DNA of 64,000 nucleotides. Source: an uncultured delta proteobacterium (GTDB taxonomy: Bacteria > Desulfobacterota > Binatia > UBA9968). Made by a program: the position numbers and the translations under genes. Positions within the stretch are counted from its first letter, which is position 1. Each line of letters starts with the position of its first letter. The notes below the pieces were generated by a model, which saw only the letters and a list, made by a program, of their open reading frames with translations, was not told the DNA's origin and searched no databases. The stretch lies in contig CAVSHR010000002.1 in assembly GCA_963727625.1 (NCBI GenBank), forward strand, positions 640,001 to 704,000. The letters run 5' to 3'. Below, one piece after another: positions 44,352-49,589 of the stretch.

Positions 44352-44360
44352 TCCGTTTTG

Positions 44361-44419
44361 GGTTTCGTGCCTTGGGTTTGGCGTTGTCCTGGCGATTTGT
44401 GAACTCGAAACACGAAACC
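44361..44419. repeat. Imperfect inverted repeat after the OCD gene
   Basis: GGTTTCGTG (44361) pairs with CACGAAACC (44411). Confidence 0.45.
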
Positions 44420-44429
44420 TGAAGCGACC

Positions 44430-44477
44430 TCAATATCCCAGATCCTCAATCTCTTCCTGGTCTATTCCGAAGTCGTG
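44430..44477 (-). repeat. Diverged duplicate of the last 16 codons of the zincin gene (island left junction)
   Basis: 39/48 identical by manual alignment to 49221-49268; translates HDFGIDQEEIEDLGY* versus HYFGMDEEDIEDLGY*. Confidence 0.85.
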
Positions 44478-44559: not shown

Positions 44560-47500
44560 ATGACGGTATTGGTTGGACAACCCATCGATGCACGTGAATT
44601 GGAGCAAGCCATAAGCCAGTGGTCGCCGGATAAGTTTGCTTCCATGTGCAACGATCTGGTTTGGGCTATTTCCGGTCGCCGGTGGCCGGGGATGCCGTCC
44701 TTTACGGAACGCGTCAATGCTGCTGACGGCGGGATCGATGCAGAGTGGGAGGTAGAAGTTTCGGATGGAGACAGCGTAGTCCCGACTCCGATTATCGGTC
44801 CAGGTTGGAACGTTTTCCAGTACAAAAAACGTGATCTCATCGCCCAGGATCGAAAACGCATCATTTCCAATGTTAAATCAGACCTGAAGGGAGCTGTCAC
44901 TAACCTTACACGAGCGCGCCAGCGGCTTCCAAGTCGTTACGTATTGTTTTTGAATGTCGATTTGAAGCATGACCAAACCGTAGCTCTAAAAAGTGCAATA
45001 CTGGAAGGGTACGACCGGGCATTGGGGGTTCACGTCGAGGTTATCGGGGCGGCTGAAATTGCCACCTTCTTAAATGACCAACCGCACCTTAGAGCGGCTT
45101 ATTTTTCTCCGCTCGCTTTCAAAACCTGGGAGGAAGCTAATCGCTCTCACCGCAATCAAAAGCTTTTCGGTTTCGACGTAGCATTGGTAGGTCGAGAGGG
45201 TCTGCTAACACGACTAAGGGATTTGGTTGATGCTCCCCATATTGCCGTGATTGTGGTTTCAGGACCACACGATATTGGGAAGAGTCGTCTTGTCCTTGAG
45301 GCCACTCATCATCGACCTCAGGATATTGTTTTTGCAGTTGATCCCCGCTCCATGAAGATTGATGACTATCGTAATCTCGTCGCAGAGCGGCGCAATGTTG
45401 TGTGCGTTGTCGAAGATCCCGATCCAGAACGAGTTGAACGGCTTATCAACGAAATTCTGGGCATCGAACGACTAAAAATAATAATTACTGTTCCGAATTC
45501 AGAGCAGATGCCGCCAATCTCGTATGGTTTGGATAACCGAGTAGAGTCATTATTTGTCGAGGGTTTAAGCGACGAAAACGCGCGTAAACTTCTACTGTCC
45601 ACACAGAAGCATCTAGACTTTGGTGTTGAGTCCTGGATTTTGGATCGAGCGGGCGGCAATCCCGGAATTTTGCTTGCAGCGGCAACGGTGGCAGAGACGC
45701 TACGAACCGAGTCTGGAAACTTTGAAACGGGCGTTGGGCAGGAATTTGCGAGACGGATCGAATTAGAGCTGAGTGGAAACTCGCTAAAATGTGCAGAGCT
45801 ATTATCCCCATTGACCCACGTTGGTATTTCAGGACGGTTCGAAAAGGAAATCCGCGCAATCTGCGATATCTTTGGTGACGGGCATTGGAATCTGACTGAG
45901 GTCTTTTCCGAACTAGAGAGTTTGGAAAAGACGGGATTGGCAAAAAGAGGGGGATCGTTTGCCGAGATTTCGATACCGTTTCTAGCTAATCATCTTGTAT
46001 CAGCGCTACTTCGCGGTCGAAAGGATGAATTATTCGCTCTCTTTGCAAGGTTAGAACAAGCAGGGAGAGTGAGACTGATCAGGCGCCTCTCGCAGGTCAC
46101 AAGCCCCGAAGTAAACCATTTTTGGGACGCCCTATTCGATCCTAACGACTCGCAAGCTCCGTTCGGCACTCTGTCATCTGCGTTGAATCAGTCGCAAATG
46201 CTGCGATTCATTGCTGGTGCCGCACCAGAAAAAACAATCGTCTTGTTAGAAAAAAGCCTGCTTGGAACAAGTCACGAGGACAGGTTAGCGATAACCGGTG
46301 ATGCGCGCCGGGAGATCATGTGGGCCCTTGAACAACTTCTTTTTCGGGCAAAGACTAGTCGGCGCGCTTTAACATTGGTCTGGCTTTTGGCTGAAGCGGA
46401 GACTGAAACCTGGGGCAATAACGCCACTGGTGTCTTGTTAGAGTGTTTTCATCCTTTGCATAGCCAGATGCCTCTGCCACTGGATGAGAGATTGGCGGCC
46501 TTGCGTGAATTTACGTCAGCTTCGGGTTCTAGAGACGGAGCACTCGTCGCGATTCGAGCCGCAGGAAAGGCTCTGAGCCAACGTGCTGTTGGACTTCGAC
46601 ACAGCATGGGAACCGCGCCGTTAGATAAGAGGCCGGTTTTTACTTATGGAGATTTGTACGACTATGCTCGTGATGTAATAGACCATCTCTTCTCGATCGC
46701 GGAATCTGCAGAGAACGAGATTGCCCACGCTGCGGTGGAACAATTGCCAACCTTAGTATCAGAACTGGCCACTCAGGGGCGACCGAAAGAAGCATTAGAG
46801 CGCCTTAACAAATTAGTCGCTTGGGCAGTATCAGAAAAGCCAGGAGTAAGCATCGCGTCTTTGTACAGGGTCCTTCACTTTGTTCGGCGAGTCTTTCTTG
46901 AACGCGCCCAAAAAAAGGACACCGATGCTAATGGACGTGAAGAATTTCAACAGCATGTTAAGGATCTTGAGCGCTTAGTTTACAGTCTGGAAAGTGGCGG
47001 CTTCTCTGTGAGACTAAAGAGATGGGCTAGCGGATGGCATTCAAAAGACCATGAAGAATTACTGATTAATGGGCAGAAAGTGTATCGATCAGAATACGAA
47101 CTGGAGAATTTAGCTAAAGAGTTATTATCGAATTCTGCGTTGTTGACCCCACAGATACTTTCGTGGCTTGTTTCTGGTGAGGCGAACCAATCTCATCAGT
47201 TCTTCTATCACTTGGGCAGATTGGATGTAGAAGGTTGTTTTCGCTCCAAGATGGTGAAGATTGGAACTGACAGTCGTGGATCAATAGCTTTTGCTTCGTA
47301 TTGGGGAGGTCAGGCAGAAATTGACCGAAGAAAAGCAGAGGCACGGCTAGAAGAACTCGCAAGTTTGGGGGCCATTGCTGGTAAAGCGTCTATTGCTACG
47401 GCCGCGCGCTTGGGACCGAGCAAATTAAGTCTACAAATAGTTCGGCATGAAATCTCAGTGGGTCGCGTCTCCTCCAATGACGTGTCTGAAATTCTCTATG

Positions 47501-48531
47501 GGGACTGGATCGAAAAGCTATCACCAGACGATTTGTTGAGCTTGCTAGAGATCATTGCAGGAAAGCAGTTCGAAAATGCAAAGGTAATAACTAATGTACT
47601 TACGAGGTGGATACACCACGATAAATCACTGGAGGGTCCGCTTGGGGAGTTTGCGTGGAAATGTCTGGAAGTTATGCCACCTGTTTTAGGCAACGAAGCT
47701 TACGATTGCGATCAAGTTGCTTCAAAATTGGCTCAAATAGACCCTGAACGGGGGTTTAAACTTCTTGAGAGCCTTTTGATGCAGCCTGAGGACAGACGAA
47801 GCTGGTGTCCGATAGATCGTTATGTGGGTGGAAACGATTTTTGGAGTGTCTTGCACAAATCTGACCCCCGGAAAGCCCTGCGGACGGTTTTTTATGTCGC
47901 TTTGCAAGACCCCTTGTACGGCTTCCGTGTGACGTGGAATCTTGAAGAATTGTTGAATCAAGCAGCTGACGCAGACATGTTGCTTGAGTTTGCTCTCGAA
48001 GCCGAGAATCACGCAATCCTAGTTGCTGAAAGCATCACAAGTGCCAAAGACGGCTTTTGGCCAATTGCTTTTGGTATTGTTCAGAAGTTTCCTACCAGTG
48101 AGAAGGTGCGGAATGCACTTACGCAGGGCGTCGAGCAAATGGGTCGCATTATAGAAGGCCCGTATTCACAACATACTGAGGCGTGCCGCAGAGAAGTTGA
48201 GAAAAGGCTGAGGGATCCAGGTACTCCAGCGGCAGCTCGCCCCTGGCTTCAGGATATCCTGGGCCGCCTAGAGGAAGAAATAGCTCAACATACCATTTGG
48301 GAATATGACGAAGACGCGAACGACCTACGACGATATATAGAAATTGAAGACAAAACTTCTCCTGAAAGGATTTGGGCTATATCGCGTGTCTTAAAGTATG
48401 CAGACTGGAAGGACGTAAGAAGGATGTTGACGGTTGAAGATATTGAGGACGTTCTCCCTCAAGTGGATTTACCTGAGAGAAAGCGTAAGGCATTAGAAAA
48501 AGCGCTGGAGGTTTGGCGTAGTGGAGTCTAA
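44560..48531 (+). CDS. Restriction-endonuclease-like / STAND-type NTPase / helical-repeat protein with a C-terminal antitoxin-like domain
   Basis: DGGID...FQYK (Mrr-like PD-(D/E)xK variant), Walker A GPHDIGKS, Walker B-like VCVVED, GGNPG, long helical region, C-terminal WEYD...WAISRVLKYADWKDV...ALEVW. Start could be GTG 44539. Confidence 0.75.
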   Translation: MTVLVGQPIDARELEQAISQWSPDKFASMCNDLVWAISGRRWPGMPSFTERVNAADGGIDAEWEVEVSDGDSVVPTPIIGPGWNVFQYKKRDLIAQDRKRIISNVKSDLKGAVTNLTRARQRLPSRYVLFLNVDLKHDQTVALKSAILEGYDRALGVHVEVIGAAEIATFLNDQPHLRAAYFSPLAFKTWEEANRSHRNQKLFGFDVALVGREGLLTRLRDLVDAPHIAVIVVSGPHDIGKSRLVLEATHHRPQDIVFAVDPRSMKIDDYRNLVAERRNVVCVVEDPDPERVERLINEILGIERLKIIITVPNSEQMPPISYGLDNRVESLFVEGLSDENARKLLLSTQKHLDFGVESWILDRAGGNPGILLAAATVAETLRTESGNFETGVGQEFARRIELELSGNSLKCAELLSPLTHVGISGRFEKEIRAICDIFGDGHWNLTEVFSELESLEKTGLAKRGGSFAEISIPFLANHLVSALLRGRKDELFALFARLEQAGRVRLIRRLSQVTSPEVNHFWDALFDPNDSQAPFGTLSSALNQSQMLRFIAGAAPEKTIVLLEKSLLGTSHEDRLAITGDARREIMWALEQLLFRAKTSRRALTLVWLLAEAETETWGNNATGVLLECFHPLHSQMPLPLDERLAALREFTSASGSRDGALVAIRAAGKALSQRAVGLRHSMGTAPLDKRPVFTYGDLYDYARDVIDHLFSIAESAENEIAHAAVEQLPTLVSELATQGRPKEALERLNKLVAWAVSEKPGVSIASLYRVLHFVRRVFLERAQKKDTDANGREEFQQHVKDLERLVYSLESGGFSVRLKRWASGWHSKDHEELLINGQKVYRSEYELENLAKELLSNSALLTPQILSWLVSGEANQSHQFFYHLGRLDVEGCFRSKMVKIGTDSRGSIAFASYWGGQAEIDRRKAEARLEELASLGAIAGKASIATAARLGPSKLSLQIVRHEISVGRVSSNDVSEILYGDWIEKLSPDDLLSLLEIIAGKQFENAKVITNVLTRWIHHDKSLEGPLGEFAWKCLEVMPPVLGNEAYDCDQVASKLAQIDPERGFKLLESLLMQPEDRRSWCPIDRYVGGNDFWSVLHKSDPRKALRTVFYVALQDPLYGFRVTWNLEELLNQAADADMLLEFALEAENHAILVAESITSAKDGFWPIAFGIVQKFPTSEKVRNALTQGVEQMGRIIEGPYSQHTEACRREVEKRLRDPGTPAAARPWLQDILGRLEEEIAQHTIWEYDEDANDLRRYIEIEDKTSPERIWAISRVLKYADWKDVRRMLTVEDIEDVLPQVDLPERKRKALEKALEVWRSGV

Positions 48532-48535
48532 GGTA

Positions 48536-49213
48536 ATGACTCCATTCCAAACAAGGGTCCTAGAGACTCTTTTTGAAAGTGGTCTCAGCGACCTCGGTTA
48601 TTTTTTTACCGGTGGGACAGCACTCGCTGAATTCTATCTTCAACACAGATTTTCCGACGATCTAGATATATTCATTAGAGAACATCAAAGCATAAAGGGT
48701 GATTTTACCAGCGTCAAACGACTCTTGGAGGAGAAATCATTCGAAGTGTTTTCGGAAGTGGCGGGAGATGAATTTGTTCGATTCTTCGTACGTGACTCTG
48801 AGGAGACGGGGCCCGGTCTAAAAGTTGAGTTGGCGAGACAGGCGGGGGTTCAATTGAGTCCGAGCATGGCCGTCGGCAAGATTGTGGTGGATTCATTTGA
48901 GGATATAGCCGTCAATAAAATTTGTGCGATCTACGGAAGGATTGAAGTCAAGGATTTTGTAGACTTGTTCTTCATACTAAGACAATCAAATTTCTCTCTC
49001 GATTACCTGGTTGCCCGGGCCAAGGAGAAAGACGCCGACTTCGAAAGAGAAGATACGGTACTCGAATTTGCCACGCGGCTTTTGGCCGTGGGAGAATTGC
49101 AATTGCATCAAATCCGGATGATTAAGTCATTGTCATTGGATGATCTCCGGTCTTATCTTAGACCTAAGGCGGAGGAATTGATTAGACTGTTTCGTCCGGC
49201 AAGGGTGCCATAA
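48536..49213 (+). CDS. AbiEii/DUF1814-family nucleotidyltransferase toxin
   Basis: FFTGGTALAEFYLQHRFSDDLD and NKICAIYGR...KDFVDLF motifs. Alternative GTG start at 48521 overlaps the upstream stop. Confidence 0.9.
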   Translation: MTPFQTRVLETLFESGLSDLGYFFTGGTALAEFYLQHRFSDDLDIFIREHQSIKGDFTSVKRLLEEKSFEVFSEVAGDEFVRFFVRDSEETGPGLKVELARQAGVQLSPSMAVGKIVVDSFEDIAVNKICAIYGRIEVKDFVDLFFILRQSNFSLDYLVARAKEKDADFEREDTVLEFATRLLAVGELQLHQIRMIKSLSLDDLRSYLRPKAEELIRLFRPARVP

Positions 49214-49220
49214 AATCGTT

Positions 49221-49589
49221 TCAGTACCCCAGATCCTCGATGTCTTCTTCGTCCATGCCGAAGTAGTGAGCGATCTCATGCAACACCGTGAGGCGAATCT
49301 CTTCGCGAAGCTTAACCGGATCGGCAAAGTCACGCAGCAACGGTTCGGCGAAGATGGTTATTTTATCCGGCAACAGCGGCGGTTCGAGGCTGGATCGTTC
49401 GGGGAGAGGAACGCCTTGATAGAGCCCGTAAAGCGTATCGTGACGCGGGTCGAGCCCTTCGGCGCGCAAGAGCTTCGGACTTGCTCTTCCCTCGACGACG
49501 AATTCCAGATTGCGCAACTGGGCCCGGAAGCGGCGCGGTAGCCGGTCCACAATTTTGGCCACTTCTTCCGTGATTTGATGGATGTCCAA
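49221..49589 (-). CDS. Minimal zincin-like metallopeptidase
   Basis: LYGLYQGVPL.ER...PDKITIF...TVLHEIAHYFG (HExxH). Confidence 0.9.
   Translation of the reverse strand: MDIHQITEEVAKIVDRLPRRFRAQLRNLEFVVEGRASPKLLRAEGLDPRHDTLYGLYQGVPLPERSSLEPPLLPDKITIFAEPLLRDFADPVKLREEIRLTVLHEIAHYFGMDEEDIEDLGY

Follow-up and report, generated by a model that had tools for sequence, protein, structure and literature searches.

We describe here a two-gene cassette in a 64,000-nucleotide stretch of DNA from an uncultured delta proteobacterium (Desulfobacterota; Binatia; UBA9968; GenBank assembly GCA_963727625.1, contig CAVSHR010000002.1, positions 640,001 to 704,000 of the forward strand; the whole stretch is hereafter called the window), in which a large Avs-like STAND sensor (gene 1) is followed by a nucleotidyltransferase of the AbiEii/DUF1814 family (gene 2). 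The best reading of this arrangement, well supported by comparative genomics, is that the sensor carries the partner of the putative toxin as its own C-terminal domain—because this domain tracks the AbiEii gene across related loci and its free-standing relatives sit directly upstream of AbiEii genes. On the whole, we regard the cassette as very probably a defense system, and it is probable that the tail of the sensor is the cognate partner of the transferase. A first-pass annotation of the same DNA had proposed that the sensor carries the antitoxin; the partnership is borne out by homology to free AbiEii partners and by a co-occurrence of 44 loci against none, while neutralization of the transferase by the tail would follow by analogy.

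The distribution of domain and transferase was examined across 109 related loci, 29 of them from species genomes and 80 from metagenomes, and classified with sensor, domain and transferase profiles. The domain was present together with a transferase directly downstream in 44 loci (19 + 25), and none of the 109 had a transferase downstream of a sensor lacking the domain. Neither element was found in 21 loci, all with a sensor body complete to its end and at least 289 nt of downstream sequence, and 36 loci at contig ends were not assessable. The remaining eight, representing five distinct loci, contained a domain and no transferase, the locus being degraded or the domain degenerate: one degraded locus was seen three times, while in the four others (L071/L072, L073, L074 and L075) the domain no longer has its W-E-Y-D motif or its last Trp, and in L071/L072 and L075 it runs into a basic tail of ~30–45 residues rich in Arg, Lys and Gly. 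Moreover, the link between domain and transferase held down to 26–28% sensor identity (L108, L111, L120 and L124). The 49 intact sensor bodies placed in a FastTree reconstruction comprised that of the window, 34 fused forms, five that retain only the domain and ten that lack both elements; one duplicate was dropped, and degraded or partial loci were left out. The transferase-less forms fell into one clade nested among the fused forms, and forms with a remnant domain interleaved with domain-less forms within that clade. This topology is most simply read as a single loss of the transferase, after which the domain decayed.

The second line of evidence comes from proteins that consist of little more than the domain itself. 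We built a profile from 20 copies of the C-terminal ~85 residues and searched 1.84 billion representative proteins with it, obtaining 178 matches, of which 144 newly listed ones were classified with a whole-sensor profile: 70 were domain-only proteins of up to 160 aa, 41 were sensor fragments, 32 were full-length sensors and one was a longer domain-only protein. No other fusion partner, nor any other large protein carrying the domain, was found among these 144. The free homologues are stand-alone proteins of 83–160 aa that align over the entire domain and share the pattern F/W-W-D/E-Y-D ... W-A-I-x-R-I/V-L ... L-T ... I ... L-P ... W. Exact-sequence matching of ten free homologues led to entries called 'hypothetical protein' or without a name, and two came from archaeal and Patescibacteria records. 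Within 401 genomes of the window's phylum, a free-protein profile detected the family in 24 genomes, including that of the window itself, leaving 23 other loci for inspection. An AbiEii gene lies directly 3' of the free homologue in 18 of these 23, mostly overlapping the small gene—a count based on Pfam AbiEii matches in 14 of 15 downstream open reading frames (ORFs) tested, with four more added by the transferase profile (two complete, two partial). Of the other five loci, one is at a contig end, two are weak matches and two (L040 and L049) have no detectable transferase.

Two further observations concern the surroundings of these free genes. On two metagenome contigs (L060:92-1102 and L061:1-927), a sensor homologue 64–73% identical to that of the window is directly preceded by a free small partner gene, which in L060 matches the free-protein profile at E 1e-19; an AbiEii gene, split over two frames, follows the partner, and the 3' end of the sensor is off the contig. 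At these loci, then, the sensor gene has a free pair as its neighbor. Additionally, free pairs and genes of the DUF6922 family (see below) often occur beside other defense genes (L044, L047, L165, L035, L046 and L050), including those for a RAMP protein, a Card1-type CARF nuclease, Cmr3, ResIII/DEAD helicases and a DUF4143 ATPase.

Profile comparison supports a remote relationship between the domain family and DUF6922 (PF21956). With hhalign, the free proteins matched this family with a probability of 90.8% (E 1.2e-6) and the fused domains with 72.8% (E 3.2e-5). The DUF6922 hidden Markov model (HMM) gave sub-threshold matches in 2 of 20 fused copies (best E 0.0065) and in 3 of 47 scanned domain-profile matches, all three being free proteins; the domain of the window did not reach the gathering score of 27 bits, and its own genome contained no match at E ≤ 0.001. 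DUF6922 genes were present in 52 of the 401 genomes, and an overlapping AbiEii gene followed in 11 of 30 loci inspected (L143–L172), four of the 30 having too little downstream sequence to judge. No paper mentioning DUF6922 turned up in our literature search. Taken together, DUF6922 looks like an unrecognized class of AbiEii partners, at least as far as gene neighborhoods can tell.

From a structural perspective, the C-terminal part was annotated as a distinct domain, and the prediction agrees: AlphaFold2 (AF2) modeled it as a confidently folding module of five helices, with predicted local distance difference test (pLDDT) values >90 at residues 20–88. Comparison with solved structures gave only a best E of 3.0 with Foldseek, a best Z of 5.1 with VIA (in the noise range for helical models) and a best profile E of 1.2, and neither an antitoxin nor a winged helix-turn-helix fold was conspicuous among the fold matches. 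Pfam and NCBIfam scans of the last 131 aa returned nothing meaningful, and the AbiEi models of Pfam, PADLOC and NCBIfam matched neither these residues nor the large protein (Pfam and PADLOC at E ≤ 1). Because a confident five-helix fold is predicted and no solved structure matches it, the domain is probably neither of the AbiEi type, with its winged helix-turn-helix, nor of the single-helix MenA1 type.

The layout of the two genes (Table 1) closely follows the earlier description. The large protein, announced as ~1320 aa with an Mrr-like motif, a P-loop and a distinct C-terminal domain, is 1323 aa long and contains all of these motifs; its start is placed at the ATG with which the 'MALLIGQPI' N-terminus of the homologues aligns. 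The nucleotidyltransferase had been placed within 4 nt of gene 1 or overlapping it, and both descriptions apply: an ATG at 48536 lies 4 nt after the TAA stop codon (48529–48531), and the start suggested by homology, the GTG at 48521, overlaps gene 1 by 11 nt, the relatives opening with M-x-x-S/K-I/V-L-T-P-L-Q at an ATG that in most loci has a similar overlap of ~11 nt with the preceding stop. The candidate start for the corresponding N-terminus lies 10–11 nt before the end of the sensor stop codon in 12 of 17 related loci checked; in the remaining five, it falls between 8 nt ahead of that point and 5 nt past it. Since the start of gene 2 overlaps the sensor stop, this geometry implies that the transferase is translationally coupled to the sensor. 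The absence of a separate antitoxin gene was likewise upheld, with no small ORF between or upstream of the two genes in the ORF list of the window and no match to any AbiEi model. An internal start giving rise to a separate small protein was considered and ruled out, the domain boundary having no conserved Met in 26 sequences. None of the 15 sequencing runs listed for positions 47800–49213 is an RNA run; all are of DNA or metagenomes, and their share does not exceed 0.20.

Table 1. Coordinates of the cassette, its domains and motifs, and the adjoining repeats and gene (positions are those of the window).
Feature	Position	Strand	Basis or remark
Gene 1, Avs-like STAND protein, 1323 aa	44560(ATG)..48531	+	ORF and translation; alternative GTG start 44539 (1330 aa)
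N-terminal Mrr-like PD-(D/E)xK nuclease domain (predicted)	44560..45159	+	DGGIDAEW 44725-44748, FQYK 44815-44826
STAND NTPase module	45160..45999	+	Walker A GPHDIGKS 45262-45285
Long sensor region	46000..48285	+	First part colinear with PD-Lambda-4_A (Avs8A) profile
C-terminal domain, ~80 aa, five helices (predicted)	48286..48528	+	Profile search, hhalign, AF2 model
Gene 2, AbiEii/DUF1814-family nucleotidyltransferase, 230 aa	48521(GTG)..49213	+	Alternative ATG 48536 (225 aa)
Gene 2 motifs	GGTAL 48611-48625; RFSDDLD 48647-48667	+	
11-nt overlap of gene 2 start and gene 1 stop	48521..48531	+	Sequence
Direct repeat, left copy, 48 nt, imperfect	44430..44477		81% identity, spacing 4791 nt
Direct repeat, right copy (3' end of convergent zincin-like gene)	49221..49268		Repeat; Zincin_1 Pfam match
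Zincin-like gene, convergent	49221-49589	-	Zincin_1 Pfam match

The fusion itself is a conserved feature of the sensor family rather than a peculiarity of this assembly, a possibility that the earlier annotation had raised. A search of 5.8 billion clustered proteins returned 218 matches to the large protein at E ≤ 0.001, and 112 of the 120 matches listed cover at least 97% of the query, with 39–100% identity and lengths of 1289–1370 aa; by name, they come from Deltaproteobacteria, Acidobacteria, Nitrospira, Binatia and Thermodesulfobacteriota. A lost stop codon, an assembly error or a chance fusion was ruled out because the full-length fusion is conserved in these 112. The whole architecture, including the last ~80 residues, is kept in an alignment of 26 homologues, in which the residues of the motifs DGGIDAEW (63–70), FQYK (93–96) and GPHDIGKS (242–249) are invariant or nearly so. 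Mean pairwise identity is 0.576 in the nuclease head, 0.557 in the nucleoside triphosphatase (NTPase) module, 0.516 in the helical/winged-helix part that follows, 0.447 in the first half of the sensor region and 0.401 in its second, least conserved half, before rising again to 0.569 in the C-terminal domain. The identity of the tail matches that of the catalytic parts, and the tail is therefore equally constrained.

Several approaches converge on the identity of gene 1, which had been described as an Avs-like sensor. In the nuclease head, the D, D, Q and K residues are invariant in 19–26 homologues. The Pfam Mrr_cat HMM (PF04471) did not match the head at E ≤ 10, and Pfam and NCBIfam scans of the first 207 aa and of the sensor region gave nothing meaningful; a profile of 19 N-terminal domains did align with one of 16 Mrr_cat domains (hhalign E 1.2e-4, probability 55%, 111 columns) over the whole of Mrr_cat, with DGGID on DGGID and QYK on QAK in register. 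The sole Pfam signal in the large protein is AAA_16 at the Walker A region (E 3.3e-6, below the cut-off), where the G and K of GPHDIGKS are invariant. In addition, an AF2 model of residues 1–480 (pLDDT 79.2, predicted template modeling score 0.77) found Avs4 (8dgf_A) as its top Foldseek match, with E 3.3e-9 over 537 columns, 13% identity and a TM-score of 0.30, followed by CED-4, Avs3, Apaf-1 and plant NLRs (E 1e-9 to 1e-6 for these and Avs4), and by SAMD9 and Avs5. VIA-align gave Z values of 12–13 over model residues 183–480, hardly covering the nuclease head. The single PADLOC match of the large protein is PD-Lambda-4_A (E 1.1e-8, 31.2 bits), colinear between residues 414–755 and profile positions 417–760 of 1283, and the sensor is the only match to this profile in the genome; sequence searches of the large protein against solved structures gave no match at E ≤ 1. 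From the Avs4 match, the in-register Mrr_cat alignment and the PD-Lambda-4_A match, we conclude that gene 1 encodes an Avs-type STAND sensor with a putative nuclease head, distantly related to Avs8A. Separately, three canonical Mrr_cat genes occur elsewhere in the genome, unlinked to the cassette (C9:455577-455927, C5:653239-653583 and C3:8689-8946; E 2e-37 to 2e-22).

The assignment of gene 2 is straightforward, with a match to PF08843 at E 5.9e-16 (59.6 bits, the cut-off being 22.5) and to the PADLOC AbiEii model at E 1.1e-14. The motifs GGTAL (residues 31–35) and RFSDDLD (43–49) are intact, as first annotated, and their catalytic columns are unchanged in 29 relatives, in which G31, G32, R43, D47, D49, K133, R140, D145, D148 and K170 are invariant. 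S45 is nearly invariant; its position corresponds to the one at which, according to the accessible text of PMC11375011 and 10.64898/2026.01.19.700257, MenT/AbiEii toxins auto-phosphorylate upon antitoxin binding. Two structural-genomics proteins, 4o8s and 4ok0, are the only solved structures that match gene 2 by sequence. In a transferase tree, 17 sensor-linked enzymes were separated by one branch from 12 enzymes of free pairs (support 87/93; recovered in 84% of bootstrap trees), a grouping consistent with a single fusion event. The rows of this tree stem from Myxococcota, Nitrospirota, Acidobacteriota, Planctomycetota, Elusimicrobiota and Chloroflexota, and such a spread over several phyla implies horizontal transfer.

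The genomic context agrees with mobility. The cassette is 4.8 kb long, flanked by a 48-nt imperfect direct repeat and low in G+C content, with 46–51% over both genes versus 56–59% on either side. Housekeeping genes surround it, with a member of the ornithine cyclodeaminase family upstream and the convergent zincin-like gene and MltA downstream. The same site is empty in six of six congeneric loci (L136 and L138–L142), where the cyclodeaminase gene adjoins the zincin-like gene; a seventh congeneric locus was left out of this count. On sequence grounds, the cassette is a recent, horizontally acquired insertion. No integrase or transposase was found near it, no tRNA gene occurs in the window, and scans for promoter and terminator patterns around the cassette gave counts at the level of shuffled sequence. 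An imperfect 25-nt inverted repeat (44354–44426; 72% complementary, 23 nt between the arms), unlisted in the pattern scan, sits just 3' of the cyclodeaminase gene, ahead of the left copy of the direct repeat, and may be the terminator of that gene.

Drawing from these observations and from analogy with known systems, we propose a mechanism for the cassette, to the whole chain of which we give an even chance. The cassette would be a horizontally acquired two-gene anti-phage unit whose sensor, with its Mrr-like head, a P-loop NTPase module for oligomerization and a long region for target recognition, gained an AbiEii partner, the presumed antitoxin, at its C-terminus. At rest, the C-terminal domain would neutralize the transferase, either by binding it or by inducing auto-phosphorylation of S45. 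Binding of a phage protein to the sensor would lead to ATP-dependent oligomerization, activating the nuclease and withdrawing or occluding the C-terminal domain; the transferase, once freed, would block translation—possibly by modifying tRNA 3' ends, by analogy with MenT. Furthermore, loss of the sensor would be punished, as truncation, frameshift, deletion or phage-driven destruction would all remove the antitoxin-like tail. In its most far-reaching form, the proposal states that an NLR-like sensor is itself the antitoxin of a translation-blocking toxin and hence self-guarded; that phage activation fires the nuclease and frees a tRNA-modifying transferase; that sensor loss through host mutation, island loss, a phage protease or a degradation tag kills the cell; that the wiring is ancient (to 26% sensor identity) and extends over at least seven bacterial phyla; and that the DUF6922-like family is a large, unrecognized class of AbiEii antitoxins. 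We advance this combined statement tentatively, and would sooner expect some part of it to fail.

Several points weigh against the reading of the sensor as a guarded antitoxin. The toxicity of the transferase, its neutralization by the domain and protection against phages are all drawn by analogy with Avs and AbiE/MenAT, and the label 'antitoxin' for the free family and for DUF6922 rests on gene order and analogy. The fold comparisons tie the domain to no known antitoxin, which in itself does not establish a new fold. The transferase subfamily is far in sequence from MenT and from the AbiEii of Streptococcus agalactiae; because of this distance, and because only 4o8s and 4ok0 match, its target may differ. 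When tested in E. coli, the AbiE of S. agalactiae is reported to have failed to protect against 32 coliphages (10.64898/2026.01.19.700257). The five distinct domain-only loci indicate that the domain can survive for some time by itself, or may serve a further function, and the sensor tree was rooted at its midpoint only, with FastTree support values uninspected.

Among the alternatives, the one that survives best is that the fused domain and the toxin merely stabilize a costly sensor gene as insurance or addiction, with the nuclease as sole immune effector, so that a nonsense mutation, frameshift or deletion in the 4-kb sensor ORF would remove the C-terminal antitoxin and free the toxin. The antitoxin-like domain at the very end of the ORF, the translationally coupled toxin and the mobile 4.8-kb insertion would all suit such a role, as would the degraded loci L012, L023, L025 and L116, where the transferase is also broken or gone, and the clade in which the transferase was lost before the domain decayed. 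The comparative data do not separate this explanation from the two-effector one; however, AbiE-type pairs are recorded as abortive-infection systems in the accessible text of PMC3985639 and 10.64898/2026.01.19.700257, and a free toxin-antitoxin pair nearby would stabilize the island too, which leaves the fusion unexplained unless protection against point mutations matters. On balance, we consider pure insurance unlikely.

STAND proteins of NTP-dependent conflict systems are known to recruit separately encoded effectors via small adaptor domains, and the tail could accordingly be an adaptor instead of an antitoxin, docking the transferase as a second effector that is switched on by oligomerization—with the free small protein likewise acting as an activator or specificity factor. 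Here as well, one would expect domain and transferase to occur strictly together and to be coupled in translation. However, every characterized upstream partner of a DUF1814 transferase in the accessible text of PMC11375011 and 10.64898/2026.01.19.700257 is an antitoxin, and a small gene placed first, with overlapping stop and start, is the order of AbiE and MenAT pairs. The transferase also lacks a copy of the domain, so any docking would not be homotypic; an adaptor function seems somewhat less likely still than insurance. Finally, the absence of any functional link, with the tail serving the sensor (e.g., in autoinhibition or oligomerization) next to an independent AbiEii gene, could be read from the five distinct loci with a domain and no transferase, but is highly improbable given the 44-to-0 count, the free homologues preceding AbiEii in 18 of 23 loci, the degenerate state of the domain wherever the transferase is missing and the conserved start-stop overlap.

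Returning to the reading in which the sensor carries the toxin's partner, its implications would be considerable. Few building blocks of prokaryotic immunity are as common as STAND/Avs sensors and AbiE-type pairs, each known as a system of its own; in the cassette, they appear hard-wired, the presumed antitoxin being a domain of the sensor. If true, the cassette would represent a natural pattern-recognition receptor with two unlike effectors, one acting on DNA and the other on translation, and an example of how an autoimmunity-prone, costly defense gene can be protected against mutational loss and against phage anti-defense that destroys the sensor. It would also offer a functional handle on DUF6922-like AbiEii partners, which occur in ~6–13% of sampled genomes (24/401; 52/401).

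The closest named relative of the sensor is Avs8, formerly PD-lambda-4. In the accessible text of 10.1101/2025.07.02.662641 and 10.64898/2026.01.04.697583, Avs8A combines an Mrr nuclease with a STAND NTPase and is triggered by HK97-fold major capsid proteins; its partner Avs8B, encoded with it in a two-gene operon in E. coli, has no assigned function according to the former source. The cassette resembles this system in its two-gene layout, in the order of parts (an Mrr-like head and a STAND core, in 1323 aa versus a 1283-position profile) and in the colinear HMM match. It differs in that the sensor matches just 342 of the 1283 profile positions (31 bits), short of a full-length match, in that the second gene encodes an AbiEii transferase, and in the extra C-terminal partner domain. 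The PD-Lambda-4_B (Avs8B) profile found nothing in the whole genome at E ≤ 1, nor was it among the best 25 of 26 PADLOC families for the downstream protein (the 26th being weaker than E 0.016). Since this profile is without a match genome-wide, we conclude on sequence criteria that the cassette falls outside the named PD-lambda-4 system. The concern that the pair might match an already named system has thus been answered by the PADLOC comparison, with a partial match to PD-Lambda-4_A and Avs8B absent. As a side note, 14 control genomes were also scanned with the PD-Lambda-4_B profile (PDLC03992), which matched in three, those of E. coli, Thermotoga maritima and Haloferax volcanii. Such a spread is odd, given that the partner is described as lacking known relatives, and the profile may pick up a common domain.

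Avs4, represented by EcAvs4 (8dgf), is the top structural match of the N-terminal 480 aa and shares the single-chain order of nuclease, STAND and sensor, with 13% identity to the sensor of the window and a TM-score of 0.30, the head having been compared only within the 480-aa model. EcAvs4 is an Mrr-like nuclease STAND protein that senses the phage portal. To our knowledge, Avs4 has neither a transferase partner nor an antitoxin-like tail.

With AbiE and MenAT, the cassette shares the PF08843 toxin family, including the catalytic motifs and the conserved Ser, and the partner encoded upstream with an overlapping junction. In contrast to these systems, it has no AbiEi/COG5340 winged helix-turn-helix antitoxin: the partner is a helical domain of ~80 aa without a solved relative, fused to a 1240-aa immune sensor, and 4o8s and 4ok0 are the sole solved structures to which the transferase subfamily could be matched. 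Diversity of partners is familiar in this family, as MenA antitoxins come from unrelated families (PMC11375011, accessible text) and DUF1814 antitoxins, according to the same text and that of 10.64898/2026.01.19.700257, comprise several unrelated families that act via induced auto-phosphorylation of the toxin.

The first-pass annotation knew of no described system with this architecture. Our literature search, covering titles and abstract openings, found no description of a sensor-partner fusion forming a unit with AbiEii, and the accessible text of a STAND survey (10.64898/2026.01.04.697583) contains none of the terms 'antitoxin', 'AbiEii', 'DUF1814' or 'nucleotidyltransferase', although its supplements may list the clade. 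The claim of novelty thus stands for the architecture, with Avs8B absent, and not for the sensor, which has named, if distant, kin in Avs8/PD-lambda-4A. All parts are known in kind—an Avs-like STAND protein, an AbiEii toxin and a DUF6922-like partner—and it is the fusion of partner and sensor, together with the two-gene unit, that appears undescribed, as far as we could find. The resemblance to DUF6922 lies in the position directly upstream of AbiEii and in the pattern FWDxD ... IIxRvL ... W ... W shared with the domain; DUF6922 and the free homologues of the domain, however, occupy different loci in the same genomes. In functional terms, the nearest parallels may be PARIS, in which an AriA ATPase scaffold holds the AriB toxin, and CapRel(SJ46), where toxin and antitoxin are fused and the antitoxin part recognizes the capsid. 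As proposed here for the cassette, a sensor protein silences a toxin until a phage protein lifts the block, with sensor and antitoxin combined in one polypeptide; the families involved are different, and the antitoxin-like module of the window is fused not to the toxin but to an NLR-like STAND protein with a putative nuclease of its own.

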